64,000 nucleotides of DNA, from the NCBI GenBank assembly GCA_964196055.1, contig CAXMSF010000251.1:1101-65100 (forward strand). The letters run 5' to 3'. The DNA is from an uncultured Gammaproteobacteria bacterium. Lineage in GTDB: Bacteria > Myxococcota_A > UBA9160 > SMWR01. Below the pieces are notes generated by a model that did not search any database, had not been told where the DNA came from, and saw only the letters and a program-made list of their open reading frames with translations. Below are positions 3,016 through 64,000 of this stretch, piece by piece (the stretch's first letter is position 1; each line of letters opens with the position of its first letter). The position numbers and the translations under genes were made by a program.

Positions 3016-4805
3016 CGGCTGCGCACGCTCCCCTGCCCGCCCGAATCTTCCGTCGAGCCCGCGTCCCCCATGAATTCCCCCAGCGAGCCGGGACGCTCCG
3101 CCCTAGTGATTTCCCTCACGGACGAATCTTCCAAGGCATAGATGCGGTCCGCAACCTCGAACAACGCTGGTTGATGCGAAATCGCGAGCACCGTCGTCTT
3201 CCCGCGGAGTTCCCTGACAGCATCCCAGATCACCGCTTCGCTCTTCGGGTCGAGCGCAGCCGTGGCTTCATCGAGGATGAGCAGTCGAGGCTGCTTCAGC
3301 ATCGCACGCGCGATCACGAGGCGCTGCCTCTGACCGCCCGAAAGCGCCATACCGCGCTCGCCGACGACGGTGTCGAGTCCGTCGGGCATCTCCGAGACGA
3401 AGGCCCAGGCGTGCGCATCCTTCAACGCCTGAACGATCTGGTCGCGCGAAATCTCCGGATCGCCGAGGCCGACGTTCATCGCAACCGTATCGTGCAACAA
3501 GAACATCTCTTGCGGGACGTAGCCCACGCATGCCCGCCAGCCCGCGAGATCGATCTCTTCGAGCGAAGTCCCGTCGAGCACGACCTCGCCTGCCTGCGGT
3601 TTCACGAGGCCGACCACCAGGTCGACGATCGAAGTCTTACCCGCCCCGGAGGGGCCCGTGAGCGCGGTAATGCGACCGGCCGGGATTTCGAGCGAGAAAT
3701 CCTCGAACAGCGGAACATCGCCGTACCCGAACGTCACCGCACGCAGCTCGATCGCGCCATCGAGATGTGCCGGCGCAGCACCGTGCCACGACTCCTTCGC
3801 GCGCTCCGCTTCGACGATGGTCTGCATCAGCGCGTGATAAGCGCTCTCTTGGACCGCGACGCGCTGGTAACGGCGCTGCGCACGGTTGAGCGCGTCGAGG
3901 GTGCGCGCAACCGCCAACGTCATCACGCTCATCGACGCAATGTTGAAGCCCAATCGCAACATCGCGAACAGCCCGAGGCACAGCATCCCGACCATGATCG
4001 GTTCCTGCAGTGCCGCGATTGCTTCGCGCGACAGAATCTGCCTGCGCGTCGCCCGCTCCAGCGCCCGCGTGCCGTCCTCGAGTAGTGGGCCGACGCAATC
4101 CTCGCGCGCCATCGCCTTGAGGGGTTTCACGCCCTGGAGGATATCGGTGAGCGAAGCAAGCACGCTCCGGAACAGCTTCGTCTGCTTGACACCGGACTTG
4201 CGGCCGACCCGGACCAGTGGCCCGAGCACGGCTACCACGACGACCCCGACTCCCACCGCGAACAGCGTGGCCTGCCACGAGATCGCGAAGGCGATCCCCA
4301 CGTAGACGACCACCTGAAGCCCGAGCATCACCACCCAGGTGGCGTTCAGATAGCCGCGCGCTGCGCGAGTCGTTTCGGTCGCGTAGGCGTTTGCGAACGA
4401 CCCGACGCGCTGCGCAACCAGGTAACTCCAGCTGGTTGCGAGCAATGAACGAATCAGCCTCAGGCGCAGCTCGCGCGCCACGCGGGCGACCGTGTATCCG
4501 ATCTCCCGCCTGGCGAGCAGGATCAGGACAGCGCGCAGCGCGAATCCCGCGGGCACTACGAGCAGCAGTGTCCCGAGTGTCGGCTCGAGGCCAAGCCACT
4601 GGAGCCCCTCGATCGCGCGCGCTTCGAGCCCGTCCGGCTCTGGCGCGAGTCCGTCCCCGGCCCCGACCGGGCCCGCCAGAGCCGACACCAGCGGCAACAG
4701 GGCTGAAAACGCAACGGCCTCAGCCGCCGCTGCCACCAGCAGGCACGACATCATCAGCAGGCTGTGCCACGGGTGGGCGCGCGTGAAATCGAGCAGCAAC
4801 CTCAT
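3012..4805 (-). CDS. ABC transporter, fused permease/ATPase (MsbA-like exporter)
   Basis: Six-TM N-terminal half; Walker [10 protein letters not shown], signature LSGGQRQRL, Walker B LLILDEAT. Start moved to the internal ATG at 4805 ([13 protein letters not shown]). The 143-aa upstream extension of ORF 3012..5234 is Arg-rich and overlaps the opposite-strand PLD gene region. Confidence 0.85.
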
Positions 4806-5069
4806 GCCGTCCCCGATGAGCGAGTCAGGTCCATTGCGTTGCGGTGCCACTTCCGGTCGCGGTGCTGAAAGGTCCCCGGAACGCGACCGGAGTCGAATTC
4901 CGGTCCGACCAGCCGAATGACGAAAGCACGCAGCATCGATCGAAAGGCCCCCGGCTCCTCGCCCCGTCTGGAGCGACCCGCAGCCGCGATCATAGTCCGC
5001 ATCGCGGGGCAGGCGGAGGGCTTGGCGGGCAGCCTCTCCGGACCGCTCGCGATCCGCTATCGGTATGCG

Positions 5070-6152
5070 ATGAACGCGCAAGACGTCTACTTCGGGGGCC
5101 CCGATCATCCCCCGGGTCGTTTGCGTGACCTGCTCGCGGAACACATCGAAGCCGTCCCAAGCGGTGGCGCGATCGACTGGGTCACCTACTACTTTCGCGA
5201 CCGGCGCCTCGCGGAGGGACTCGCTCGGGCGCACGACCGCGGCGTGCGAGTTCGCGTCACCGTCGAAGGATTGCCGCGTTCGCCGAGTGCGAACGCCTGG
5301 GTGATCGAATTCCTACGAGAGGCCCTCGCGGGAGACCTGCGAGTAGTGCGTGCCATCCATGACAGATGGTTCTGGAACAAGCGGATCCGCCCCAGACTTC
5401 ATGAAAAGCTTTACATATTCTCCGGCCCGGAACCGACGGCATTCATCGGCTCGTTCAATCCCTCCGGCGACGAACCCGAGCTCGAACCGGACACCATCCG
5501 CGAGATCGGCGACCAGGACCGCGGACACAACCTACTGGTGGCGCTGCGCGATCCGGAACTGGTCGCTTCGCTCGTCGAACACGCTCGCGCGCTCCACACG
5601 AAGAGGCACGCGTGGCTCGAACGTTTCCTGCCCAGCGCAAGCCGGGTGCTCCAGAGCGAGGGCCTGAGCGTGCATTTCCTGCCGCGCTGGCGCGCCCATC
5701 CGGTCGACGTTCTGCTCGAGCGATGCGGGGCCGGGCACCGAGTTCGAATCGCGGCTTCGCATCTGAGCGGGAAGTCCTCGACCCAGGCCCTGAAGGCCCT
5801 CGCCCAGCGCGGCGCAAGCATCGAGATCCTCGCCGGGGCCACCGAGCGCCGCGTTCCACCCCGAGTAGAAGAAGAGCTTCGTTCCGCCGGGGTCTCATTC
5901 GAACGGCTGGTTCACTCCGAGGGCTTCCCCATGCACGCGAAGTTCGCCCTGATCGACGGCTGCGACGACCATACCGTCGTATTCGGTAGCTTCAATTGGA
6001 CCCAGCGATCACGCCACCTGAACCGCGAAGTCGTCGCGATCGCGACAGATCCGGAACTCTTCGACGTATTCGCAAAATACTGGGACGCGATTCGGCAGCC
6101 GTCGCTCGTGCCCGCCCGGAACGACGCCGACTCGCTCAGCGCGAAATCGTGA
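5070..6152 (+). CDS. phospholipase D-like (two HKD-type motifs) protein
   Basis: HEKLYIFSG...GSFNPS and HAKFALIDG...GSFNWT, i.e. duplicated HxK(x)4D...GSxN motifs. Start placed at ATG 5070 (MNAQDVYFGG). Confidence 0.7.
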   Translation: MNAQDVYFGGPDHPPGRLRDLLAEHIEAVPSGGAIDWVTYYFRDRRLAEGLARAHDRGVRVRVTVEGLPRSPSANAWVIEFLREALAGDLRVVRAIHDRWFWNKRIRPRLHEKLYIFSGPEPTAFIGSFNPSGDEPELEPDTIREIGDQDRGHNLLVALRDPELVASLVEHARALHTKRHAWLERFLPSASRVLQSEGLSVHFLPRWRAHPVDVLLERCGAGHRVRIAASHLSGKSSTQALKALAQRGASIEILAGATERRVPPRVEEELRSAGVSFERLVHSEGFPMHAKFALIDGCDDHTVVFGSFNWTQRSRHLNREVVAIATDPELFDVFAKYWDAIRQPSLVPARNDADSLSAKS

Positions 6153-7500
6153 ACAGGTGCTCGGACTGCGATTCGACGCGCACGCCTTCGAACCGCCCGA
6201 GCAGACTGCCGAATCGCGCGATCTTCTCCCGGAGTTCGGCTGCGTCCACGCCGGGGAAACGATGCCGGTGGAACTCGAGGTTGGCGCGGTGGCCCACGCG
6301 GTGGCGATTGAAACGCTTCACGGCCGTCCGGCCGGCCAGGTGGACCCGCGCCACGCGGGAACGAAGTAGCTTCGGCGCCGGGCGCGGCCCCGCGTAACCA
6401 GCCGCCTCGAGCACGTCGACCACCCGGTCCGCTGCCAACCGACCATCGAGCGCATCGAGGTGCGCCGCCAGAATCGAGCGCACCTCTGGGTCGTCACGAA
6501 CGCCGAGTTCGCCGCTGAGGATCGATCGCAACGTCTTTTCGGTGTCTTTGATGTCGGCCGCCTGGTGGCTCAGGGAATTCGGCAGCACCATGTCGTAGAC
6601 GGCGTCGCGTACGGGCTGGTAGGCAATCGCGGGGGTGCCGAGGATCATCGCTTCGACGGCCGTGGTGCAGCCGTTGTGGATCAGCGCATCACACGCCATC
6701 AGCCACGGGTAGACGTTGCCCTCGTTCGCGACTTCGACATCGTCGAGTTCCGCCGCAATCGCGCGCCATAGATCGTGACGCTCGGACGGGTGCGGCCGCA
6801 CCACGATCCGGAGGCCCGGGAGCGACCGGCTCAGCTCGGGAATCAACCGCTTGAAGTGCTCGAGCACCCGATTCCGGAAGGCCGCTCGCCCGGCCATGAA
6901 GACGTCCGGCTTCGCAGCACCCCCGGTCACGAGGTTCTTCGTCAGCTCGCTCAGGTTGTCGTGGAAATGGTTCAGGCCCGAGAAATTCGTGTTGATCAGT
7001 ACGAATCGTCCGAAGCGCGCCCGAATCGCCGCAACATCGCGATCGAAGAAAGCGCGGATCTCGGGCCGCATCAGGTCGATGCGTGGGTTGCCGGTGACGT
7101 GGATCGGACAGCCCGGGTAGCCCGCGAAGCCGGCGAACGCGCGAGCGTCATCCTGCCCCCACGCGAACAGGATCTTCACTCGTTCGAGCGCCTTCGCGGA
7201 CAAACGCCGCTGGTAGTAGAACGGGTCGGGAAAGCGGACCAACCCTTCTTCGTCCCAGGCGACGATCTCATGGCCGAGATCCGAGATGATGCCGAACATG
7301 CGATCGCTCGCACGGCGCATACTCTTGGCGACGTAGATGCCCCTCGGGACCGCAGCCATCGCGTGATGGACATAGGCACGCGAACCGAAGACCACTGAAA
7401 AGCCGCGCTCGGCCGCGACCGCCGCAAGCAGCAGCTTCGCGTCCAGCTCCCGGACCTGGCTCTCGACTGGGACGATCAAGCTCGGCTGTTGCGAAGACAT
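6136..7500 (-). CDS. 'surface carbohydrate biosynthesis protein'-type paralog 1 (putative GT-B-like transferase)
   Basis: 454 aa. Shares the N-terminal block SLIVPVESQVRELDAKLLL..GHEIVAWDEEGLV, the central VTGNPRIDLxRPE, RPHPSE, the HNGCTTAVEA block and the C-terminal RFPGV...RF.G..VE...H tail with three other ORFs in this window. Confidence 0.7.
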   Translation of the reverse strand: MSSQQPSLIVPVESQVRELDAKLLLAAVAAERGFSVVFGSRAYVHHAMAAVPRGIYVAKSMRRASDRMFGIISDLGHEIVAWDEEGLVRFPDPFYYQRRLSAKALERVKILFAWGQDDARAFAGFAGYPGCPIHVTGNPRIDLMRPEIRAFFDRDVAAIRARFGRFVLINTNFSGLNHFHDNLSELTKNLVTGGAAKPDVFMAGRAAFRNRVLEHFKRLIPELSRSLPGLRIVVRPHPSERHDLWRAIAAELDDVEVANEGNVYPWLMACDALIHNGCTTAVEAMILGTPAIAYQPVRDAVYDMVLPNSLSHQAADIKDTEKTLRSILSGELGVRDDPEVRSILAAHLDALDGRLAADRVVDVLEAAGYAGPRPAPKLLRSRVARVHLAGRTAVKRFNRHRVGHRANLEFHRHRFPGVDAAELREKIARFGSLLGRFEGVRVESQSEHLFTISR

Positions 7501-7504
7501 GCCG

Positions 7505-7514
7505 CCCCCCCCCC
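7505..7514. repeat. homopolymer C10 (G10 on the coding strand of 6136..7500), 4 nt upstream of its ATG
   Basis: Read directly. The plus strand reads ...gacat|gccg cccccccccc atcagc, so the minus strand reads GGGGGGGGGG-CGGC-ATG. Confidence 0.9.
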
Positions 7515-7688
7515 ATCAGCGGAGATTGGTTCGAAGATCGATATGGCGCATTGGGGAACCCCCTGAGTATACGTCGGAACCGGCGCCGGGGTTCCACCCC
7601 CCTGGGGCAAATTGGCGATTCGGTGGGTGCGCTGATACATCACCGAGAACACATCTCGAGGCGGTGCCTCCTGAAATCGGGAATCTCG

Positions 7689-9116
7689 ATGGCTCGACAA
7701 CCCAGATCGCTGATCGTTCCGGTCGAGAACCAGGTCCGGGAGCTGGATCCCAAATTGCTGGTCGCCTGCGCGGCCGCCGAGCGCGGCTTTCGCGTCTTTC
7801 TCGGCTCGCGCACTCGGATCGACTTCAGAATCGCGTCGTTCCCACGCGGGTTCTACCTGGCGAAAGGCATGACCCCCAAATCGGCGAAGATGTTCCGGAT
7901 CATGCGCCGAATCGGCCACGAGATCGCCGCACTCGACGAGGAGGGACTCGTCTACCACTCGGCTGCGGAATACTGCGCGCGCCGAGTCTCGGACGAAACG
8001 CTGCAGCTCGTCACGATGCTGTTCACCTGGGGCGACGCCGGGGCCAAACTGCTCCGCGACCATCTCGGAGACTCCGCAACCCCGGTACGAGTCACCGGCA
8101 ACCCTCGGATCGACCTGTTGCGGCCCGAGTTGCGCGGCTACTTCGCCGAGGATGCCGCACGAATCCGCGCACGCCACGGACCGTTCCTGCTGATCAACAC
8201 CAACTTCGCCAAGGTGAACGCCTACTTCCCGAAGATGAACCTGCTCGTACCGCCGACCCAGCCCGGTCAGCAGAGCGAACTCGGTGCGGCGGGCATCGGT
8301 CTGCCGCGTGATTTCGCGGAGGGCCTGGCCGCTCACAAGAGCGCGCTGTTCGAACACTTCCGCGCGATGATCCCTGCGCTTCACTCGGCCTTTCCAGGTC
8401 ACCGCCTGATCGTCCGACCGCACCCTTCCGAGAACCGTGCGCCATGGCAGGCGGTCGTCTCGGAGCTCGCGCGGGCCGATGTGATCCACGAGGGAAACGT
8501 GATCGCCTGGCTGGAAGCATCGAGCGCGTTGATCCACAACGGCTGCACGACCGGAATCGAGGCGCTCTGCCTCGGCAAGCCCGCGATCGCGTACCGGCCC
8601 GTGTCATGCGATCCGTTCGACCTGGAGCTACCGAACACGCTCAGTCGGCAATGTTTCGATCTCGACGCGCTGCGCGAGGCCGTCGCGAGCGCGCTCGACG
8701 AGAAGTTCGACGCCCACCCGAACGAAGCTCAGCAACGCCTGGTCGAACACCACATCGCCGCGCGCGACGGCGAGTTGGCAGCCGACCGGATCGTCGACGC
8801 ACTCGTGGAACGCGCGGCCGAAGCCGCGCCACTCCCGTCCGCGCCTCTGCGGCTGCGCGGCCGGCTCGCCGCCACCACGCGCAGCCTCGTGAAGCGCCAC
8901 ATCAAGGCGCGCGTCCCGCAGCACCGCAACAACCCGGCTTACCAACGGAACCGCTACCAGGGTGTATCGGAGCACGAGTTGGAGCAGCGGATCGCGCGCC
9001 TCGGCGCCTGCTTGAATCGCTTCGACGGGCTACGGGTGAGGCCGGTCGCTGAGCACATTCACGAGATCCAGGCAGCCCCCCCCGCAGGGAATCCCCCTGC
9101 TCACGATTCCATATGA
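7689..9116 (+). CDS. 'surface carbohydrate biosynthesis protein'-type paralog 2
   Basis: Start set at ATG 7689 (MARQPRSLIVPVENQVRELDPKLL) by alignment with the other paralog N-termini. Same conserved blocks (VTGNPRIDLLRPE, RPHPSE, HNGCTTGIEA, RYQGVSEHELEQRIARLG). Confidence 0.7.
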   Translation: MARQPRSLIVPVENQVRELDPKLLVACAAAERGFRVFLGSRTRIDFRIASFPRGFYLAKGMTPKSAKMFRIMRRIGHEIAALDEEGLVYHSAAEYCARRVSDETLQLVTMLFTWGDAGAKLLRDHLGDSATPVRVTGNPRIDLLRPELRGYFAEDAARIRARHGPFLLINTNFAKVNAYFPKMNLLVPPTQPGQQSELGAAGIGLPRDFAEGLAAHKSALFEHFRAMIPALHSAFPGHRLIVRPHPSENRAPWQAVVSELARADVIHEGNVIAWLEASSALIHNGCTTGIEALCLGKPAIAYRPVSCDPFDLELPNTLSRQCFDLDALREAVASALDEKFDAHPNEAQQRLVEHHIAARDGELAADRIVDALVERAAEAAPLPSAPLRLRGRLAATTRSLVKRHIKARVPQHRNNPAYQRNRYQGVSEHELEQRIARLGACLNRFDGLRVRPVAEHIHEIQAAPPAGNPPAHDSI

Positions 9117-9290: not shown

Positions 9291-10388
9291 ATGTACAAGG
9301 TCAAGGTTCTGGGAGCCGGCTCGATCGGCAACCACCTCGCCAATGCCTCGCGCCGATGCGGCTGGCAGGTGGCGATCTGCGATCTCGACCCGGCCGCCCT
9401 CGCCCGCACGCGCAACGAGATCTACCCCAGCCGCTACGGCGCCTGGGACGAAGCCATCGAACTCTACCCGACCGGCGACGCGCCGAAATCGGTCTACGAC
9501 CTGATCGTCATCGGAACCCCGCCGGACGCGCATGTCGATCTGGCCATCGAGGCGATCGCGGAGGGCCCACGCGCCGTACTGGTCGAGAAACCGGTATGCG
9601 GTCCCGACCTCGCGCGGGCCCAGGAGATGTTCGACCTCGCAAAGGAGCGCGGCGTCCAGGTATTCGTCGGCTACGACCACGTCGTCGGAGCCTCCGCAGT
9701 CCACGCTCTCCAGCAGGCCCGCACGCTCGGCCGAATCGAGACTCTCGATGTCGAATTCCGCGAGTACTGGGGCGGGATCTTCGCCGCACACCCGTGGCTC
9801 GACGGCCCCCAGGACAGCTACCTGGGTTTCTGGCAGCGCGGCGGCGGCGCCAGCGGCGAGCATTCCCACGCGATCAATCTGTGGCAGCACTTCGCCCGCG
9901 AACTCGGAGCCGGGCGTGTCATCGAAGTGACCGCGACTCTCGATTACGTCAAGACGGATCTCGTCGACTACGACAGCCTGTGCCTGCTCAACCTGCGCAC
10001 CGAATCCGGCCTGGTCGGGCGTGTCGTACAGGATGTGGTCACACAGCCTCCCCGCAAGTGGGCGCGCATCCAGGCCGAAAACGGCTACGCGGACCTGTCG
10101 ATCGGCTTCGAGCCCGGCATCGACCGGGTCGAGTCCAGACTGGGAGAAGCCGAGGCCGAAGAGCACGTCGTCGAGAAGACGCGACCGGACGACTTCATCG
10201 CTGAACTCGAGCACATCGAAGCCGTGCTCGAGGGGCGCAGCGACTCCGAAGCACTGCACATCGAACGCGGCCTCGACACCATGCTCGTGGTCGCAGCTGC
10301 GCACCGCTCGGCAGCCGAAGGGCGATGCGTCACCATCGACTACAGCGCCGGGTACACGCCCGCAGCGCTCACGACCTCCAGGTCCTGA
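9291..10388 (+). CDS. Gfo/Idh/MocA-family NAD(P)-dependent oxidoreductase
   Basis: Rossmann N-terminus MYKVKVLGAGSIGNHLA, then IGTPPDAHVDLAIEAI...VLVEKP, typical of the family. Confidence 0.7.
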   Translation: MYKVKVLGAGSIGNHLANASRRCGWQVAICDLDPAALARTRNEIYPSRYGAWDEAIELYPTGDAPKSVYDLIVIGTPPDAHVDLAIEAIAEGPRAVLVEKPVCGPDLARAQEMFDLAKERGVQVFVGYDHVVGASAVHALQQARTLGRIETLDVEFREYWGGIFAAHPWLDGPQDSYLGFWQRGGGASGEHSHAINLWQHFARELGAGRVIEVTATLDYVKTDLVDYDSLCLLNLRTESGLVGRVVQDVVTQPPRKWARIQAENGYADLSIGFEPGIDRVESRLGEAEAEEHVVEKTRPDDFIAELEHIEAVLEGRSDSEALHIERGLDTMLVVAAAHRSAAEGRCVTIDYSAGYTPAALTTSRS

Positions 10389-10414
10389 ACCAATACAGCA
10401 AAGGGTGTGAGAAC

Positions 10415-11989
10415 ATGGAATCAAAGTTCGAGTTTCGCGATCTCTTCGTCCTCGACCTGGCAAACAACCACCAGGGCAACGTCGATCACGGCAAGAAGAT
10501 CATCCAGTCCATGTCGGACGTGTGCAACAAGCACGGGGTCCGAGCTGCGATCAAGTTCCAGTTTCGCCAGCTGGACAGCTTCATCCATCCAGACCACCAG
10601 CAGGGGAGCGATCTCAAGTACATCCAACGCTTCCAGGGAACGCGCATGGAGCGAGCGGGTTTCGAAGAACTGCTGCAGGAGGTCTGGTCACGTGGCCACC
10701 TCGCCGCCTGCACTCCGTTCGACGAGGAGTCGGTCGAAGTCATCGACGAGATGGGATTCGACGTCATCAAGGTGGCGAGTTGCTCGGCGAAGGACTGGCC
10801 GCTGCTCGAGGCGGTGTCGGCCTCCGGGAAGCCGGTGATCTGCTCGACGGGCGGGCTCACCACCTTCGACATCGACAACGTCGTGAGCTTCTTCCAGCAC
10901 CGAGCCGTCCACTTCGCACTGATGCACTGCGTGTCGATCTACCCCACGCCGGACGAGAAGCTCGCGCTGCAGCAAATCCGAAACCTCGACGAACGCTATC
11001 CCGGCACCGTGATCGGCTGGTCGACCCACGAGGACCCGGACGACACCGTCCCGGTCGGCATGGCAATGGCTCTCGGCGCACGCATGTTCGAACGGCATGT
11101 CGGCGTCGCGACCGACGAGATCACGCTGAACGCCTACTCATCGAGCCCCGAGCAGCTCAACCAGTGGATGGCCGCACACGCGCGCGCAAAGGTGATGCTC
11201 GGCCCGCTGGAGCGGCCGCCCGTGGCCGCCGCTGAACAGGAGGCGATCGACAGTCTGCGGCGTGGCGTCTATGCCCGCGAGGAAATCGGCAAGGGCAGCC
11301 CGATCTCGCGCGACCAGGTCTTCTTCGCCATGCCCTACGTCGATGGCCAGCTCGAAACCGGGCGCTGGAAGGAGGGCATGGTGGCAACCGAGGACGTCGC
11401 GGCGAACGGCCCCCTTCTCCTCGATGACCTGCTGGTCCCCGAGAACGAAGACGTCCAGGTGATCAAGTCCGCAATCCACGAGGTGAAGGCGATGCTGAAC
11501 GAGGCCCGCATCCACCTCGGGCCCGATTTCGTGACCGAGTACTCGCACCACTACGGCATCGCGAACTTCCGCAAGTTCGGCGCGGTGCTGATCGAGTGCA
11601 TCAACCGCGAATACTGCAAGAAACTCGTGGTCCAACTGCCGCTCCAACGACACCCGTCTCATTACCATGCCCGCAAGGAGGAGACCTTCCAGATCCTGTA
11701 CGGGAAGCTCTTCTCCAAGATCGACGGTCACGTCCGCGAGCTCTACCCGGGCGACACCGTACTCGTCCAGCCGGGCGTCTGGCATTCCTTCTGGACCGAG
11801 GACACCGGCGTGATCTTCGAGGAAGTGTCGACGACGCACTACAACAACGACTCATTCTACGAGGACAAACAGATCAACAAACTCGAACGAGCCGAGCGCA
11901 AGACCGTCGTCGACAACTGGGGGCGCTTCCAACTCTCGAAGCACAAGGACGTGGCTGCCGAGGAGGCGTCCGAAGCCGACGAGCAATGA
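10415..11989 (+). CDS. NeuB-family sialic-acid-type (nonulosonate) synthase fused to a SAF domain and a C-terminal D-lyxose/D-mannose-isomerase-like cupin
   Basis: Start ATG 10415 (MESKFEFRDLFVLDLANNHQG). NeuB-like TIM barrel (VIKVASCS..., CSTGG..., MHCVSIYPTP). SAF-like RRGVYAREEIGKGSPI. C-terminal HPSHYHARKEETFQILYG...PGVWHSFWTEDTGVIFEEVSTTHYNNDSFYEDK matches my memory of lyxose-isomerase cupins. Confidence 0.7.
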   Translation: MESKFEFRDLFVLDLANNHQGNVDHGKKIIQSMSDVCNKHGVRAAIKFQFRQLDSFIHPDHQQGSDLKYIQRFQGTRMERAGFEELLQEVWSRGHLAACTPFDEESVEVIDEMGFDVIKVASCSAKDWPLLEAVSASGKPVICSTGGLTTFDIDNVVSFFQHRAVHFALMHCVSIYPTPDEKLALQQIRNLDERYPGTVIGWSTHEDPDDTVPVGMAMALGARMFERHVGVATDEITLNAYSSSPEQLNQWMAAHARAKVMLGPLERPPVAAAEQEAIDSLRRGVYAREEIGKGSPISRDQVFFAMPYVDGQLETGRWKEGMVATEDVAANGPLLLDDLLVPENEDVQVIKSAIHEVKAMLNEARIHLGPDFVTEYSHHYGIANFRKFGAVLIECINREYCKKLVVQLPLQRHPSHYHARKEETFQILYGKLFSKIDGHVRELYPGDTVLVQPGVWHSFWTEDTGVIFEEVSTTHYNNDSFYEDKQINKLERAERKTVVDNWGRFQLSKHKDVAAEEASEADEQ

Positions 11990-43015: not shown

Positions 43016-44410
43016 TCAGCGAGTGATGCGGAAGATGTGATCCGCGAGATTCTCCACCTTCAGGTCGTGAAACCTGTCGAGCTGCTCACCGAAGCGGCGG
43101 ATCCGGATGCCCAGTTCTTCGACGCTGGTCCCCGGAAATCGGTGGTCGTGATAAGCGGAGGAGTGGCGATTGCCGGGGATCGCGGCGGCATCGCGTTTGG
43201 CGACGGTTCGTTTACGCAGTTTCTTCCGCCCGTCCCAATACTGGTAGAGGGAATCACTGCGGAACTTCCGGTCGGCGAAGCCGGCGGCATTCAGTGCGTC
43301 GATCATCCGATCGGACGCGAGCGGCCCTTCCAAGGACGCGACGTGATGCTGGAGGATCTCGCTACGAATGGCCGCGCGCTCCTGCCTGCGCGGATCGCCG
43401 CCGACGATGTCGCGTACCGCGGAGATCAACTCTTCGACGCTATATGCCTGCTCGCTCAGCGAGTCGGGAAACTCGAAATCGAACCCCTTGTGCGACACCG
43501 GCCGGAAGGCGATCGCCGGGCGATCGAGGACGGCGGCCTCCACCGCGGTCGTGCAACCGTTGTGAACGAGGGCGCCGCAGGCGATCAGCCAGGGGATCAC
43601 ACTCTTCTCGCTGACGACCCGCACGTTCGTGTGATCCCCCGCGGCCTCCTTCCAGGCTGCGTGATCTTCGGCAGGATGCGGGCGCACGACGATCGTGTGC
43701 TCGGGAAATGCGGCTGCGATGGCGGGCACCAGCGCGCGGAAGTGGCCGAACAGCGCCGCCTTGTGCTCGGCAAGGCCCCGTGCGAACTCGGGCTCCATGC
43801 CGCGAGTGTTGTCGCCGAGAATCAACTCGCCACCCGACTCGGATGCGGGCTGCAACAGATTCAGGCTCTCTGCGAATGCGTTGACGAAGCCGAAATTGCA
43901 GTTGATCAGGATGAAGTCGCCGTAGTGGCGCCGGATCTCGCCGACTTCTTCATCGAAGTAGCCGCGCACATCGGGTCGCAACAGATCGACGCGTGGATTC
44001 CCGGTGACGGCCACCGGTGTGTCGCCGATGCCGGGGAACTCGCGGAGGACCTTCGCGTCATCCTCCCCCCAGGCGAAGATCCGCGAGACGAAGGCGATCG
44101 ACTCCTCGGCCAGGCGCCTGCGGTAGTAGTGCTCGCGGGGAAATCGTACCAGCGCCTCTTCGTCCCAGGCCACGACCTGGTGCCCGAGACCACGCAGGAT
44201 GCGGAACATCCTTTTCGCGATCGACCGCAACCCCTTGGCCAGGAAGACGCCCCGCGGAAGCTTTGCCATGGCGTTGTTGAGCGGCCCACGCGAACCGAGC
44301 ACCGCAGCGTAGCCGTGCTCTGCGGCGACGCAGGCCAGGAAGAGCTTCGCGTCCAGCTCTCGAACCTGGCTTTCGACCGGAATGAAGATCGTCGTCTGCT
44401 TTGCTGCCAT
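43016..44410 (-). CDS. 'surface carbohydrate biosynthesis protein'-type paralog 3
   Basis: MAAKQTTIFIPVESQVRELDAKLFLACVAAEHGY..., VTGNPRVDLLRPD, RPHPAE, HNGCTTAVEA, RFPGTSVEELGIRIRRFG. Confidence 0.7.
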   Translation of the reverse strand: MAAKQTTIFIPVESQVRELDAKLFLACVAAEHGYAAVLGSRGPLNNAMAKLPRGVFLAKGLRSIAKRMFRILRGLGHQVVAWDEEALVRFPREHYYRRRLAEESIAFVSRIFAWGEDDAKVLREFPGIGDTPVAVTGNPRVDLLRPDVRGYFDEEVGEIRRHYGDFILINCNFGFVNAFAESLNLLQPASESGGELILGDNTRGMEPEFARGLAEHKAALFGHFRALVPAIAAAFPEHTIVVRPHPAEDHAAWKEAAGDHTNVRVVSEKSVIPWLIACGALVHNGCTTAVEAAVLDRPAIAFRPVSHKGFDFEFPDSLSEQAYSVEELISAVRDIVGGDPRRQERAAIRSEILQHHVASLEGPLASDRMIDALNAAGFADRKFRSDSLYQYWDGRKKLRKRTVAKRDAAAIPGNRHSSAYHDHRFPGTSVEELGIRIRRFGEQLDRFHDLKVENLADHIFRITR

Positions 44411-50083: not shown

Positions 50084-51463
50084 TCAATCCGCCTCGATTC
50101 GATAGACATGCTCGGCCACCGGTTCGACCCCGACTCCGCCGAAGCGACCGAGGCAACCATCGAGACGAGCGATCAGGTCGCGCAGATCGGCTTCGGCGAC
50201 GCCCGGAAAACGCTTCTCGTGGCGTTCGCCCTTGCCCAGGTGGTGAGTCGGCGATGCGACGGCATGGCCCTTCTTTCGGCTCCGACGGCGCGCGGCCCGG
50301 CCTCCCCGCAGCCGGTCGAATAGCGAAGCCCGGGGGAGCTCCTTGCGCTCGGATTCCTGGTTTGCCACCACGTCGACGATTCGGTCGGAGGCAAACGGGC
50401 CGCTCAGGCTCTCGAGGTATTCGTCGATCGGCCTCCGCTCGGCCGGAGGCGGTGCGCACGGCAACTCGCCGCGGGCAGCCCGCTCGAGCATGGCGCGCAT
50501 TTCGTCGAGGCTCACGCATTCGTGGCCGAGCGAATTCGGAAGATCGGAATCAAAAGCGTCGGACTTCACGGGTCGGTAGCTGACGACCGGCCGGCCGAGT
50601 GCATACGCTTCGATCGCGGTCGTGCAGCCGTTGTGGACGAGAACGTCGGCAGCGAGAAGCCAGGGAATCACATTGCCGTCGTGAACGACCTCGACGTTGT
50701 CGTACCCCGCGGCGGCGGCGACCCAGGGCTCCGGCCGTTCGTTGGGATGCGGACGAACGACGAGAGTTCGATTCGGCAAGCTCGAAGCGACATCGGGAAT
50801 CATGGCTCGAAACGCGTCGAAGAGGGCACGTTTGTGCTCGAGATAGCCGGGCGAGAGGCCGCCGCCTGCTCCGCCCGGGGCACCCCGAGCCGGAGCAGGC
50901 GAATCCGACGCCTCGAGCTGGTAACGAAATCCGTTGACCTTCGAGAAGTTCGTGTTCAGCAGCGCAAACCTGCCGTGGCGATCGCGAAGACGACGCACGT
51001 CGTCGTCGAAGAACCCGCGCAGCTCGGGTCGCAGCAGATCGATGCGCGGGTGCCCCGTGGTGAAAATCGGAGTTGCGTCGAAACCGGGAAATTTCCGAAA
51101 CATCTCCGCATTGTCGCGGCCCCACGCGAACAGGAACGACACTTCCGCCAGCGCCTCCGACGACATGCGCCGTCGGAAATAGTGCTCGGCCGAAGGATAG
51201 ACGAGGGCCTCTTCGTCCCAGACGCCGATCTCGTGACCCAGCTTTCGCAGGATCCGGAACATCCGCGTGCTCCGGCGCGTCATGCTCTTCGACAGGTAGG
51301 TTCCGCGCGGAAAGCGCGTGATGTAATCATCGACCTGCGTGCGATGCCCGAGAATCGAGACGAAACCGCGTTGCGCGGCGACACAAGCCAGCAACAACTT
51401 GGAATCGAATTCACGAACCTGGATTTCGACGGGAATGATCAGCGTGGGTTTCGATGCCGACAC
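50084..51463 (-). CDS. 'surface carbohydrate biosynthesis protein'-type paralog 4
   Basis: KPTLIIPVEIQVREFDSKLLLACVAAQRGF..., TTGHPRIDLLRPE, RPHPNE, HNGCTTAIEA, RFPGVAEADLRDLIARLD. Start uncertain: GTG 51463 by alignment with the paralogs, while the ORF-track ATG 51589 adds 42 unrelated aa that overlap a thiolase relic. Confidence 0.65.
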   Translation of the reverse strand: MSASKPTLIIPVEIQVREFDSKLLLACVAAQRGFVSILGHRTQVDDYITRFPRGTYLSKSMTRRSTRMFRILRKLGHEIGVWDEEALVYPSAEHYFRRRMSSEALAEVSFLFAWGRDNAEMFRKFPGFDATPIFTTGHPRIDLLRPELRGFFDDDVRRLRDRHGRFALLNTNFSKVNGFRYQLEASDSPAPARGAPGGAGGGLSPGYLEHKRALFDAFRAMIPDVASSLPNRTLVVRPHPNERPEPWVAAAAGYDNVEVVHDGNVIPWLLAADVLVHNGCTTAIEAYALGRPVVSYRPVKSDAFDSDLPNSLGHECVSLDEMRAMLERAARGELPCAPPPAERRPIDEYLESLSGPFASDRIVDVVANQESERKELPRASLFDRLRGGRAARRRSRKKGHAVASPTHHLGKGERHEKRFPGVAEADLRDLIARLDGCLGRFGGVGVEPVAEHVYRIEAD

Positions 51464-51578
51464 AGCAGATGTTTGTAACAGCCGCACCCCGTTTCCGCCA
51501 TCGAACACCCGCTCACGACACCCGTGGCCAACAAAGGCATGTCCGTCCGGATCGAATTCGGCCGGACTCCCGACCGTG

Positions 51579-51780
51579 ATGCGCGACAAGCCGCTCTCGC
51601 CCTCGGACTACCTCGCGCGCCCGATACTCGTCGATCCGCTGCGAGTCGAGGACTGCTGTCTGATCTCGGACGGCGGCGCCGCCTGCATCATGACGACCCC
51701 CGAACGCGCACGGGATCTGCGCAAACCGCCGGTGCTGGTCGAAGGTGTGGGGATGGGGATGGTCGCGCAGCTGAATCAGG
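51579..51780 (+). pseudogene. internal relic (~65 aa) of an SCP-x/lipid-transfer-type thiolase gene
   Basis: MRDKPLSPSDYLARPILVDPLRVEDCCLISDGGAACIMTTPERARDLRKPPVLVEGVGMG matches the mid-region pattern of thiolase-like lipid-transfer proteins. No N- or C-terminal parts are present. Confidence 0.55.
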
Positions 51781-61514: not shown

Positions 61515-64000
61515 GCGAGCTGCACTTCGCGGAACCGCAATGGCTGTACGTCGCCGGGGTCGTGGGGGGGGTGCTGCTGGCGTTGGTCGCGCTCGATCGA
61601 CGTGGCGGGCGGGCACTCGAGCGCCTGGTCGGCACGGTGCTGCAGCCGCGTCTGGTCTCCAAACCGACCGCCTTGCGACGCCGCCTCCAGCTCGCGCTGC
61701 TCGGGCTCTCGGCCCTTTCGCTCGTGGTCGCGCTGATGCGCCCGCAATGGGGCGTCGAGTTCGTGAAGTCGCCCCAGATCGGGGCCGAAATCATGATCGC
61801 CATCGACGTCTCCCGCTCGATGCTCGCCGAAGACGTCGCGCCCAATCGACTCGACCGCGCCAAGGCGGAGATCCGCGATCTGCTGACCTTCCTCGACGGT
61901 GACCAGGTCGGCCTGATCGCCTTCGCGGGCCGCGCCAGCGTCGTATGCCCGCTGACACCGGACTTCGCTTTCCTCCGCATGGTGCTCGACGGCCTCGGGC
62001 CCCACACGGTGGGGCGCGGCGGCACCCGACTCGAAGAGCCGATCCGGAAGGCGACGGCGGGCTTCGGAAGTTCGGGAGACTTGTCGCGGGTGATCCTGCT
62101 CATCACCGACGGCGAGGATCACGACTCCTTCCCGATCGACGCCGCCAAAGAGGCGGCGGAACGGGGCATCCGCATCCTCGCCATCGGCTTCGGCGACGAA
62201 AACGGCAGCCCGATCACGCTCACGGATCCCGAGACCGGCGCCCGCACGACGCTGCGCGACGCCGACGGGCAGCCGGTGCGAAGCCACCTCGACGGCGACC
62301 TGCTCCGCGAACTCGCAATGGTGACCGAGGGAGCCTATGTGCCGGCGGGCACCGGTGTACTCGACCTCGACGGCATCTTCGCAGCCCATATCCGCCCGTT
62401 GATGCGGGCGACCGGCGAGGAACGCGGCCGCACGATCCGCAAGGACGCCTTCCAGTGGGCGATCCTGCTCGCCCTCGTCGCTCTGCTCGGAAGCGTGGCG
62501 ACGTCCGCCACGCGCCTGCGGGTCCTGCTGCTGATGCTGGCGCTCACGCCCGGCATCGACGCTGGGCAGGCCCACGCGCAAGCCCCCGCGCCACCCGACC
62601 CCGCAGTGAAGGCAATGGGCCTTCCGGAGCCCGAGGGAGCGCCGTCCGAATCCGATGAAGACGGTTCACGTGACCGCGTCCCCATTCCCGAGGAAGCGCG
62701 CGAGGCCTACAACCAGGGCGTCGAACGACTCGCTGACGGCCAACTCGACGAAGCCGAACGCCTGCTGGAGGCGGCGCGCAACAATGCACGGGGCGACGGA
62801 AGCGCGCGCTTCCGGGCCAGCTTCAATCTCGCCTGGGTCGAGATTCGGCGCTCGGAGGCAGTCCTCGAAAGCGACGGACCGGCAGCGCTGCGATCGCTGG
62901 AGCGCGCGGCGGACTGGTTCAGGGAAGCCATCGCCATCGATCAGAACAGCCAGGAGGCACGGCGCAATCTCGAGATCGTGCTCCGGCGAGCACTCGTGCT
63001 CGCGGATGCGCTGGCCGAGAAGGAGCCGCGCGACGTCGCCGCCCAGCTCGACGCGCTGATCGAATCGCAACGCGGCGTGGCCGCCAGCGCCCGGCAGGTG
63101 GCAGAGATGATCCAACAGGGCGGCGACCAGGAGTCTGCGCTGCGGTTGAAACCACAATTCAAACAGGTGGCTGTGGAGGCGCGACGCATCCTCGGGGAGG
63201 CGCGGGCGCTCGTGGACGTAGCGGCGGGCGAACTGGACTCCCTCGAGCAGCGCGCCGACGAGGAGCTCACACCCGAGGAGCGCATGCGCGCGGCGCAGCT
63301 TCAGGGCGTGCTCCACTACCTGCACCGCGCGCGCGAGCGGGTCGGCCAGGCGCGCAATCAGCTGCGTCAACGCCAGGCGGCACGCGCCTATCGCCGCGCG
63401 GCGGCGGGCCTCTCCGAGCTGAAGCGTGCCAGGGATCAATTGCGTCCCCCCGTGCAGCTGCTCGATGTCCTGATTCAAGACGCCGGCGACATCGCCGGCG
63501 AGACGCGCGCGCTCGCCGCATTCGAGCTCGGCGCGAGCATTCCAGCTGTCGGCCAGGATCAGCGAGCCGAAGCACCGAGCTGGCTCACGCCCCTCTACCT
63601 GGGCGAGGCCCAGGCTTCCGTCGCCGAGCGCATCGTCGAGCTCGACGCGCAGCTGCGAGCCGGGCTCGAGCAGTCGGGCACCGTCGAGGATCCCGAGCAG
63701 CAGGCGCTGCTCGATCGCGTGGCCGCGGCCGAGCCCTTCGTCGCGGAGGCGGGCGAGCACGCCGCGGCTGCCGCTGAGCGCCTCGGCGCCGAGGCGCTCC
63801 AGCCGGGCGCCGAAGCCCAGGCCGAAGCACTGACTGCATTGATCGCGGCCCGCGAACGATTCCTCGATCTGAAGGGCCTGATCGAGGTCGCCTACGCGGA
63901 CGAGCAGCGTATCGACGGGCTCTTGAATCCCAGCGACGAGGAAATCGACCCCGAGCGCATCCGCGAATACGGCCCGGCGCTGGGGGCGCTCCAGCAGCAC
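61511..64000 (+). CDS. vWA-domain BatB-like protein continuous with a BatC-like TPR/coiled-coil region (open to the window end)
   Basis: Not in the ORF track, since there is no stop in the window. I translated all 830 codons from GTG 61511 (GTGA overlap with batA) by hand and found no stop. MIDAS IAIDVSRSM, LITDGEDH, TM FQWAILLALVALLG, then a second signal-like segment LLLMLALTPGIDAGQAHA, a TPR-like segment EAYNQGVERLADGQLDEAERLLEAA and a long Ala/Glu/Arg-rich helical region. Confidence 0.75.
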   Translation, partial: MSELHFAEPQWLYVAGVVGGVLLALVALDRRGGRALERLVGTVLQPRLVSKPTALRRRLQLALLGLSALSLVVALMRPQWGVEFVKSPQIGAEIMIAIDVSRSMLAEDVAPNRLDRAKAEIRDLLTFLDGDQVGLIAFAGRASVVCPLTPDFAFLRMVLDGLGPHTVGRGGTRLEEPIRKATAGFGSSGDLSRVILLITDGEDHDSFPIDAAKEAAERGIRILAIGFGDENGSPITLTDPETGARTTLRDADGQPVRSHLDGDLLRELAMVTEGAYVPAGTGVLDLDGIFAAHIRPLMRATGEERGRTIRKDAFQWAILLALVALLGSVATSATRLRVLLLMLALTPGIDAGQAHAQAPAPPDPAVKAMGLPEPEGAPSESDEDGSRDRVPIPEEAREAYNQGVERLADGQLDEAERLLEAARNNARGDGSARFRASFNLAWVEIRRSEAVLESDGPAALRSLERAADWFREAIAIDQNSQEARRNLEIVLRRALVLADALAEKEPRDVAAQLDALIESQRGVAASARQVAEMIQQGGDQESALRLKPQFKQVAVEARRILGEARALVDVAAGELDSLEQRADEELTPEERMRAAQLQGVLHYLHRARERVGQARNQLRQRQAARAYRRAAAGLSELKRARDQLRPPVQLLDVLIQDAGDIAGETRALAAFELGASIPAVGQDQRAEAPSWLTPLYLGEAQASVAERIVELDAQLRAGLEQSGTVEDPEQQALLDRVAAAEPFVAEAGEHAAAAAERLGAEALQPGAEAQAEALTALIAARERFLDLKGLIEVAYADEQRIDGLLNPSDEEIDPERIREYGPALGALQQH

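Follow-up and report, generated by a model that had tools for sequence, protein, structure and literature searches.

We analysed a stretch of 64,000 nucleotides of metagenomic DNA (contig CAXMSF010000251.1; this whole stretch is the window below), in which a run of ten G (G10) stands just upstream of paralog 1, a well-supported surface-glycan gene that diverges from a related gene, paralog 2. A first-pass annotation had put the run forward as a candidate phase-variation switch. On the evidence below, we think it rather probable that G10 is the Shine-Dalgarno (SD) sequence of paralog 1, which has lately turned into a hypermutable homopolymer in one sub-lineage, and that it would act as a strong SD with many registers, buffered against slippage. 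A role as an on/off phase switch is unlikely.

Position and composition of the G run

On the plus strand, positions 7498-7518 read CAT GCCG CCCCCCCCCC ATCA, which on the coding (minus) strand is TGAT-G10-CGGC-ATG. The elements around the start codon are the following.

7505-7514, minus strand: G10/C10 homopolymer, core of the paralog 1 SD, from -14 to -5 relative to the AUG
7501-7504, minus strand: CGGC spacer that separates the tract from the start codon, read directly from the sequence
7498-7500, minus strand: ATG start codon of paralog 1, invariant in all orthologs aligned and placed by the paralog and profile alignments
7501-7688, no strand assigned: divergent intergenic region between paralog 1 and paralog 2, 188 bp

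The run had been annotated as lying 4 nt before the ATG, within the 188-bp divergent intergenic region, and these coordinates agree with the sequence. It had also been described as the longest homopolymer of the window. This is correct, and the runners-up (C8 at 9076-9083 and G8 at 61564-61571) are coding and in frame, as a run scan and the translations both indicate.

The GC content of the window is 64.8%. Under a model of independent bases, 1.15 G/C runs of at least 10 are expected, and such a run is present in 12.5% of windows simulated with a first-order Markov model. Composition was therefore rejected as an argument for G10, being not significant. As the run is unremarkable by composition, the case rests on comparative data: the tract is distinctive through its position and its comparative behaviour, not through composition. 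In the 25 nt before the start codon, each of the other ~50 genes of the window has 5 G or fewer.

The Shine-Dalgarno block in orthologous loci

The spacers of 14 orthologous loci, ~76-100% identical to the window, were aligned. All 14 share the divergent layout of paralog 2 and paralog 1, and all 14 carry a G-rich, SD-like block of the GGAGG or GGGTGG type just ahead of the ATG, in matching columns of the alignment. The block is interrupted in all loci outside the immediate sub-lineage of the window. The sequences before the ATG are given here in order of increasing identity to the window.

L011, 76%: GAAGGGTGGTGGG
L010, 81%: GGCGGAGAGGTGTG
L008 and L009, 82%: GGAGGGGGGTGAG
L004 to L006, 84%: GGGGTGGGGTGGG
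L007, 85%: GAGGGTGGC
L003, L012 and L091, 87-88%: GGGAAGGGTGGG
L090, 93.7%: GGGGGAGGTGGC
L089, 97.7%: GGGGGAGGGTGGC
L001 (GCA_964196235.1), 99.7%: GGGGGGTGGGTGGC (G6-T-G3-T-GG)
L088 (GCA_964196265.1), 99.7%: GGGGGGGGGGGGGC (G13-C)
Window, reference: GGGGGGGGGGCGGC (G10-C-GG-C)

The annotation had placed the run in the SD position. The alignment goes along with this, the tract being the SD itself, with GGAGG/GGGTGG-type SDs at the same place in the orthologs. The annotation had further proposed to check whether orthologous loci keep a long G tract, and here the answer was negative. The G runs of the block measure only 3-6 in orthologs of 76-94% identity, so that the tract does not recur at this locus in relatives. 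A metagenome scan with a flank-anchored pattern retrieved one locus only, carrying an allele of the L003 type, and thereby added no new strain-level alleles. The poly-G tract is not a trait of the gene family, since G runs within 25 nt upstream reach 4 at most in 62 remoter members, from many phyla and other species.

From these comparisons, the conserved element is the ribosome-binding site (RBS), with an ancestral form of about GGGGGAGGGTGG, and the homopolymer would be a recent derivative of it. We propose that the ancestral RBS of the lineage took the form GGGGGAGG(G)TGG-C/G-ATG, a G-rich SD. In the line of descent to the window, the 5' G block would have gained G's one at a time, and two interrupting bases (A and T) would have been replaced. 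In this way G6 and G3 would have fused into G10 in the window, and the whole block into G13 in the sister strain L088. The run would still be a strong SD, with GGGGG pairing to the anti-SD CCUCC through one G·U wobble and in several sliding registers. What supports an SD origin is the graded series that runs from L090 through L089, L001 and the window to L088, together with the interrupted SDs of the orthologs of 76-94% identity.

Variation among close strains

Three metagenome-assembled genomes (MAGs) that are ~99.7% identical to each other, those of L001, the window and L088, carry uninterrupted runs of 6, 10 and 13 G in blocks of equal total length, and the conserved CTCCGC stands equally far from the ATG in all three. 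The window differs from L001 at 18 of 5,878 positions and from L088 at 15 of 4,412, with zero gaps in either comparison, which indicates that homopolymer lengths elsewhere were assembled consistently. Two of the 18 differences to L001, two of the 15 to L088 and three of the 22 between L001 and L088 lie between 7501 and 7518, a span of 18 nt (binomial p = 1e-3, 1e-3 and 6.5e-5, respectively, for a region picked post hoc). The variable sites are these.

7504: tri-allelic site; on the plus strand the window has G, L001 has A and L088 has C (coding C, T and G, respectively), T being ancestral in all remoter orthologs
7508, minus strand: second hypervariable site, the former SD interruption; on the coding strand the window and L088 have G, L001 has T, and L089 and L003 have A
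7516, minus strand: variable base in the TGA just 5' of the tract, TGAT in the window becoming TGCT in L088

The A found at 7508 in L089 and L003 is the A of the ancestral GGAGG. Outside the tract, the differences of L001 are mostly synonymous and at third positions (10 synonymous, 5 non-synonymous), and other runs of 6-8 have no indels among close strains. For these reasons the assemblies look reliable and the strains genuinely distinct.

Single-G length steps occur only against the relatives of 97.7% and 93.7% identity, and none is seen among the ~99.7% strains. In L089 the sole gap in 3,570 bp falls in the tract (a difference of -1), and in L090 one of four indels does (a difference of -2). 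The tract is a true hotspot of local mutation, with substitution as the main process. Its cause may be misalignment-type mutagenesis in G runs, or else fluctuating selection on SD strength.

The run had been called slippage-prone, and part of this holds. If an uninterrupted G/C run of ~8-9 or more is long enough to slip, G10 in the window and G13 in L088 both are, and the site is unstable, with three alleles in the ~99.7% MAGs. However, the changes among the closest strains are substitutions at constant length.

A contig of a short-read Logan assembly (L002; run ERR13301390) matches the window at 100% identity and starts at 7505, the 3' edge of the run and its first C. This break may reflect heterogeneity at 7504 or in tract length in the ERR13301390 sample, or low coverage.

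An upstream ATG (7549-7551, minus strand) opens an upstream open reading frame (ORF) of 11 codons, MRHIDLRTNLR* (7517-7551), whose stop TGA is directly 5' of the G run. In L088 (at 1497-1550) the change of TGA to TGC removes this stop and G13 keeps the frame, which leaves the upstream ATG in frame with paralog 1. The L088 gene is called there at 471 aa, with a start 17 codons upstream and a W-G-G-G-G insert. As the upstream ATG is missing in L003, L007 and L090, the upstream ORF is probably not functional.

Modelled effect of tract length on translation

Translation was modelled by combining anti-SD pairing with a Salis-type spacing penalty and local folding, for synthetic tract variants from G4 to G16. 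The anti-SD (ACCUCCUUA) was assumed to be canonical, the 16S gene lying outside the window. G10 pairs with it at -10.9 kcal/mol at an aligned spacing of 5, which is among the strongest pairings in the window, where other genes use canonical GGAGG-type SDs. As in an SD, the complementarity to the assumed 16S 3' end is found at 4-9 nt from the start codon.

SD pairing plus spacing is flat between G8 and G16 (-10.9 to -11.1 kcal/mol). Below G8 it amounts to -9.8 kcal/mol at G7, -6.9 at G5 and -2.3 at G4. This insensitivity to length is a matter of geometry: the run has its 3' end fixed at -5, and a run longer than the anti-SD always holds an optimally spaced register; for the same reason ribosome binding would be buffered against slippage. 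A change in length had been expected by the annotation to alter the spacing or strength of the RBS. The model speaks against this, as the 3' edge stays 4 nt from the AUG and the energy does not move from G8 to G16.

The folding term does vary, by 0.1-2.5 kcal/mol per G, and the minimum free energy of the leader is -21.3 kcal/mol at G9, -23.6 at G10 and -25.4 at G13. Any effect on expression would be at most graded, perhaps a few-fold, and would act through folding of the 5' leader. The leader of the window is no more structured than shuffled sequence (z = +1.72), and an Rfam search with it returned no known RNA family at E <= 1.

A hairpin sequestering the SD, between an upstream CUCC and the G run, was tried as a conserved feature and rejected, performing no better than shuffles. 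The alifold consensus helix of CCAAUCUCC with the SD has -3.7 kcal/mol and an unfavourable covariation term. L010 has a perfect CTCCGC/GCGGAG hairpin, which does not generalise to the other loci.

Conserved blocks of the intergenic region

Two blocks of the spacer are conserved.

7566-7595, minus strand: GGAAC-N17-CGTATACT, the most conserved intergenic block, invariant or nearly so in orthologs of 76-100% identity
7632-7644, no strand assigned: second conserved block, CTGATACATCACC, with the invariant columns GGTGATGTATCAG in the ortholog alignment

The first is a candidate promoter of paralog 1, with -35 and -10 elements like those used by extracytoplasmic function (ECF) sigma factors. The ECF-like motif GGAAC-N17-CGTA has one match in the window, with 0.51 expected by chance. 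If 7566-7595 is the promoter, the tract would lie ~45-55 nt into the 5' leader. On the side of paralog 2, the second block is possibly a promoter element or an operator. An inverted repeat, GGAACC-N8-GGTTCC (7576-7595), overlaps the first block and is a possible operator.

An effect on promoter spacing, for the divergent gene in particular, had also been suggested. The conserved blocks are 55-140 nt from the tract, with the promoter-like ones at least 52 nt upstream of it, and the spacer is least conserved around the tract. Some ~120 nt separate the tract from the block nearest paralog 2, and it lies downstream of the promoter-like blocks of paralog 1. A scan with the sigma-70 consensus found nothing, and neither a promoter nor a terminator spans the tract. 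Judging from this arrangement, a role of the tract in promoter spacing is unlikely for either gene.

The paralogous genes and their glycan context

The two genes flanking the spacer are as follows.

6136-7500, minus strand: paralog 1, TIGR04396 'surface carbohydrate biosynthesis protein', 454 aa, by profile match
7689-9116, plus strand: paralog 2, divergent TIGR04396 protein, 475 aa, by profile match and paralogy

The proteins are 45% identical, in an alignment that starts from residue 1 in both. They score 361.8 bits (paralog 1) and 360.7 bits (paralog 2) against TIGR04396, for a cut-off of 125, and the match is full-length (profile positions 1-426 of 427), starting from residue 8 of both proteins. 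Both start codons and the 188-bp spacer are secure on account of these two alignments. Against the BFO_1060 glycosyltransferase family, paralog 1 scores 59.5 bits, below the cut-off of 200.

The AlphaFold model of paralog 1 (pLDDT 86.8, pTM 0.88) has the GT-B fold of two Rossmann domains, and the solved folds nearest to it are UDP-GlcNAc 2-epimerases, GT-B glycosyltransferases and LpxB. A sequence search of solved structures with paralog 1 found no relatives. The motifs DEEG and RPHPSE are invariant in the paralog 1 family comparison. D/E-D/E-G and HP motifs have been noted in the nonulosonic acid (NulO) transferases of Tannerella forsythia, including BFO_1060 (PMC5420450), and DEEG and RPHPSE correspond to these motifs of the BFO_1060/Tanf_01245-type enzymes. 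Nearby lie genes for a NeuB-like synthase with a fused cupin, for an oxidoreductase of the Gfo/Idh/MocA family, for a cytidylyltransferase of the CMP-sugar type, for a PLD-like protein and for an ABC exporter. Of these, the NeuB-like gene and the cytidylyltransferase gene speak for a NulO pathway. The annotation of paralog 1 as a surface-glycan gene is upheld by the TIGR04396 match, the GT-B fold and the NeuB-like, cytidylyltransferase and oxidoreductase neighbours. Paralog 1 is probably a nonulosonic acid transferase, a GT-B enzyme. Homologs come from MAGs of uncultured 'Deltaproteobacteria'/Myxococcota and from sediment metagenomes. An identical protein (P0001) is catalogued on an NCBI contig of 70,648 bp, although exact-protein look-ups with paralog 1 returned nothing.

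Further copies may be present. A TIGR04396-like paralog at 43016-44410 (minus strand) has a product that shares 44% identity with paralog 1, and in blastn the orthologs match this region at 68-70%. A possible additional paralog lies at 50084-51589 (minus strand), with a weaker DNA match within 50934-51450. Pfam gave no match for the product of either gene. The window holds at least three, perhaps four, copies of the putative glycan transferase.

Paralog 1 and the PLD-like gene (4917-6152, plus strand) are convergent and their 3' ends overlap by 17 bp (6136-6152), an overlap that orthologous loci retain (in L003 at 3849-3865, for example). The NeuB-family synthase (10325-11989, 554 aa as listed) has a C-terminal domain like cupins and D-lyxose isomerase. 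Its listed start overlaps the upstream oxidoreductase gene by 64 nt, so that the true start is probably an internal ATG (MESKFEF...). In paralog 2, L088 differs from the window and L001 by three substitutions in 4 bp (8604-8607), TCA TGC becoming AGA CGC (S306R, C307R); by its sequence, this cluster looks like a multi-nucleotide change or a micro-recombination tract.

Other runs in coding sequence

The two runs of 8 are unchanged in every close strain covering them. C8 (9076-9083) belongs to the AAPPAG codons of paralog 2, which lie in its C-terminal tail and ~11 residues short of the stop, and a frameshift there would alter only these last ~11 residues. It is identical in L001 (99.7%), still C8 in L003 (88%) and broken up in remoter orthologs. 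G8 (61564-61571) encodes GVVGGV, 54 nt into a long plus-strand ORF that starts from GTG 61511, overlaps the preceding stop as GTGA, has a von Willebrand-A/BatA-like motif (DVSRSM...) and presumably continues past the edge of the window. Such a position early in the ORF is classical for frameshift phase variation, and the length is borderline. A frame break at G8 was ruled out, the plus-strand frame being open throughout.

Discussion

Compared with a canonical SD, the tract is likewise G/purine-rich and complementary to the 16S 3' end (CCUCC), lies 4-9 nt upstream of the AUG and is conserved in position in the orthologs. It differs in that the A and U of the GGAGGU core are replaced by G, giving a mutation-prone homopolymer of 10-13 nt with many equivalent registers. 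Phase variation mediated by repeats has been divided into classes in which the tract sits in the promoter spacer, in the ORF or at the C-terminus (PMC5320596). Our tract fits none of these three standard classes. The proposal of a phase-variation switch keeps in its favour that the tract is long and the site unstable; it fails on placement, the tract lying outside the ORF with no sigma-70-type promoter spanning it, and on recurrence in orthologs.

The glycan contingency loci of other bacteria (poly-G in Neisseria lgt and in Campylobacter capsule and lipooligosaccharide (LOS) genes, poly-C in Helicobacter pylori lipopolysaccharide (LPS) genes) resemble this one in a G/C run of at least 9, a gene of the glycosyltransferase type and strain differences at the tract. 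Their tracts, however, are inside the ORF, causing frameshifts, or between -35 and -10, and are polymorphic in length between and within strains, species-wide, whereas ours is outside both the ORF and any recognisable promoter spacer, is constant in length in the closest strains and is found in one sub-lineage only. In H. pylori LPS genes, intact tracts coexist among strains with T-interrupted, 'stabilised' alleles (PMC1599737), similarly to the window and L088 beside L001. The nearest functional analogues, by comparison with published cases, appear to be two tracts upstream of coding regions. In Moraxella catarrhalis, a run of G8-G12 upstream of uspA1 gives graded high or low expression, not on/off switching (PMC7302503). 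This too is a G run upstream of a surface-factor ORF, but it acts on the mRNA level and its length switches under selection, while here the tract coincides with the SD. In Mycobacterium tuberculosis, a +1 indel in the 7G run of the espR 5' untranslated region (5'UTR) changes translation post-transcriptionally, as the 5'UTR refolds and the RBS is exposed (PMC11898584). That organism is also high in GC and that homopolymer also lies in a 5'UTR. It differs in position, beginning at the transcription start, 144 bp upstream of the start codon, and not lying in the SD, and its indels recur across clinical lineages, whereas here indels are rare and substitutions dominate.

The tract could be a true contingency locus, slipping frequently in populations and reversibly tuning, through its length or allele, the translation of the glycan transferase in a graded manner, like the uspA1 or espR tract. 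The route could lie in folding of the leader, in an RNA G-quadruplex or in an SD that is too strong, and the surface glycan would become more diverse as a result, for instance against phages. Both G10 and G13 are longer than the runs known to slip, and paralog 1 belongs to a gene class typical of phase-variable loci (PMC5320596; PMC2192423). Three alleles occur in three near-identical strains, single-G steps separate close relatives, the Logan contig L002 breaks exactly at the tract edge, and modelled leader folding shifts by up to ~2.5 kcal/mol per G. Homopolymers upstream of an ORF or in a 5'UTR can act in a graded or post-transcriptional way (PMC7302503; PMC11898584), and glycan genes of H. 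pylori carry T-interrupted 'stabilised' alleles beside intact tracts (PMC1599737). Nevertheless, we consider a contingency locus unlikely. Total length is the same in the three closest strains, which differ by substitutions; the tract is absent from the orthologs and the wider family; and SD pairing plus spacing is insensitive to length. The leader is no more structured than shuffles (z = +1.7), the consensus helix sequestering the SD is weak and lacks covariation support, and the leader has no Rfam match. Moreover, the window, from an uncultured sediment lineage, gives no sign of a wider phase-variable set, with only two other runs of 8. Were it true, repeat-based contingency would extend to environmental Myxococcota-like bacteria, with the RBS as the point of action. 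A bolder version, which we hold to be quite doubtful, is that a poly-G embedded in the SD represents a new contingency class, a translational rheostat in an uncultured free-living sediment bacterium that retunes one of several paralogous putative NulO transferases. It could work by slippage together with run-extending substitutions, through folding of the leader or of a G-quadruplex, or through over-tight anti-SD pairing. The series G6TG3TG2 / G10 / G13 would then be a product of diversifying selection on surface glycans, for instance by phages.

Sequencing or assembly errors in a G-rich, low-complexity stretch might also have created the allele differences, the three strains having in reality the same sequence. 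Poly-G stretches are error-prone on short-read platforms. The adjacent accession numbers of the three MAGs make a single study and a single platform probable, an assembly broke at the tract, and three bases at one position at 0.3% divergence are unusual for real evolution. We find this explanation very improbable, because the L001 allele is the ancestral GGGTGG state of independent JGI and Logan assemblies from other samples, and because the C10 of the window is reproduced base for base in a Logan contig, although possibly from the same reads. The alignments of 5.9 kb and 4.4 kb contain no indels, even in other runs of 6-8, the remaining differences are biased to synonymous changes like real single-nucleotide polymorphisms, and the series across relatives of 94%, 98% and 99.7% identity is phylogenetically coherent. 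As for a role at the DNA level, the tract might bind a regulator, form a G-quadruplex or act as a spacing element, and so set the transcription of one or both of the divergent paralogs. The tpr genes of Treponema pallidum use poly-G tracts upstream of the transcription start, and the divergent region shared here has several strongly conserved blocks, including the inverted repeat GGAACC-N8-GGTTCC. Such a role is extremely unlikely in our opinion, given that these blocks are 55-140 nt off and the tract region is the least conserved of the spacer, that the tract adjoins the start codon, where the orthologs carry their SD, and that no sigma-70-type promoter was found spanning it.

Some points count against the reading of G10 as a buffered SD. 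The model predicts that length matters to some degree by way of mRNA folding: the total energy is 9.0 kcal/mol at G9, 11.5 at G10 and 13.3 at G13, a few-fold range. The translation model takes the anti-SD as canonical, and it leaves out the formation of RNA G-quadruplexes and the effects of an over-strong SD. The hotspot statistics rest on a region chosen post hoc. Finally, the break of L002 at the tract edge would fit a co-occurring allele of G11 or longer, and would fit low coverage or a post-homopolymer error equally well.

If G10 is indeed an SD that has recently become a homopolymer, it would be a clean natural case of a mutable homopolymer arising from an ordinary regulatory motif, with the steps from a G-rich SD to G10 and to G13 taken within less than 6% sequence divergence. 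It would also mean that position matters, since a run overlapping the SD would be intrinsically buffered against slippage. This would be a caution for automated screens for phase-variable loci that flag long G/C runs near surface-glycan genes, especially in high-GC MAGs. We would regard the tract as an evolutionary snapshot rather than a new mechanism.

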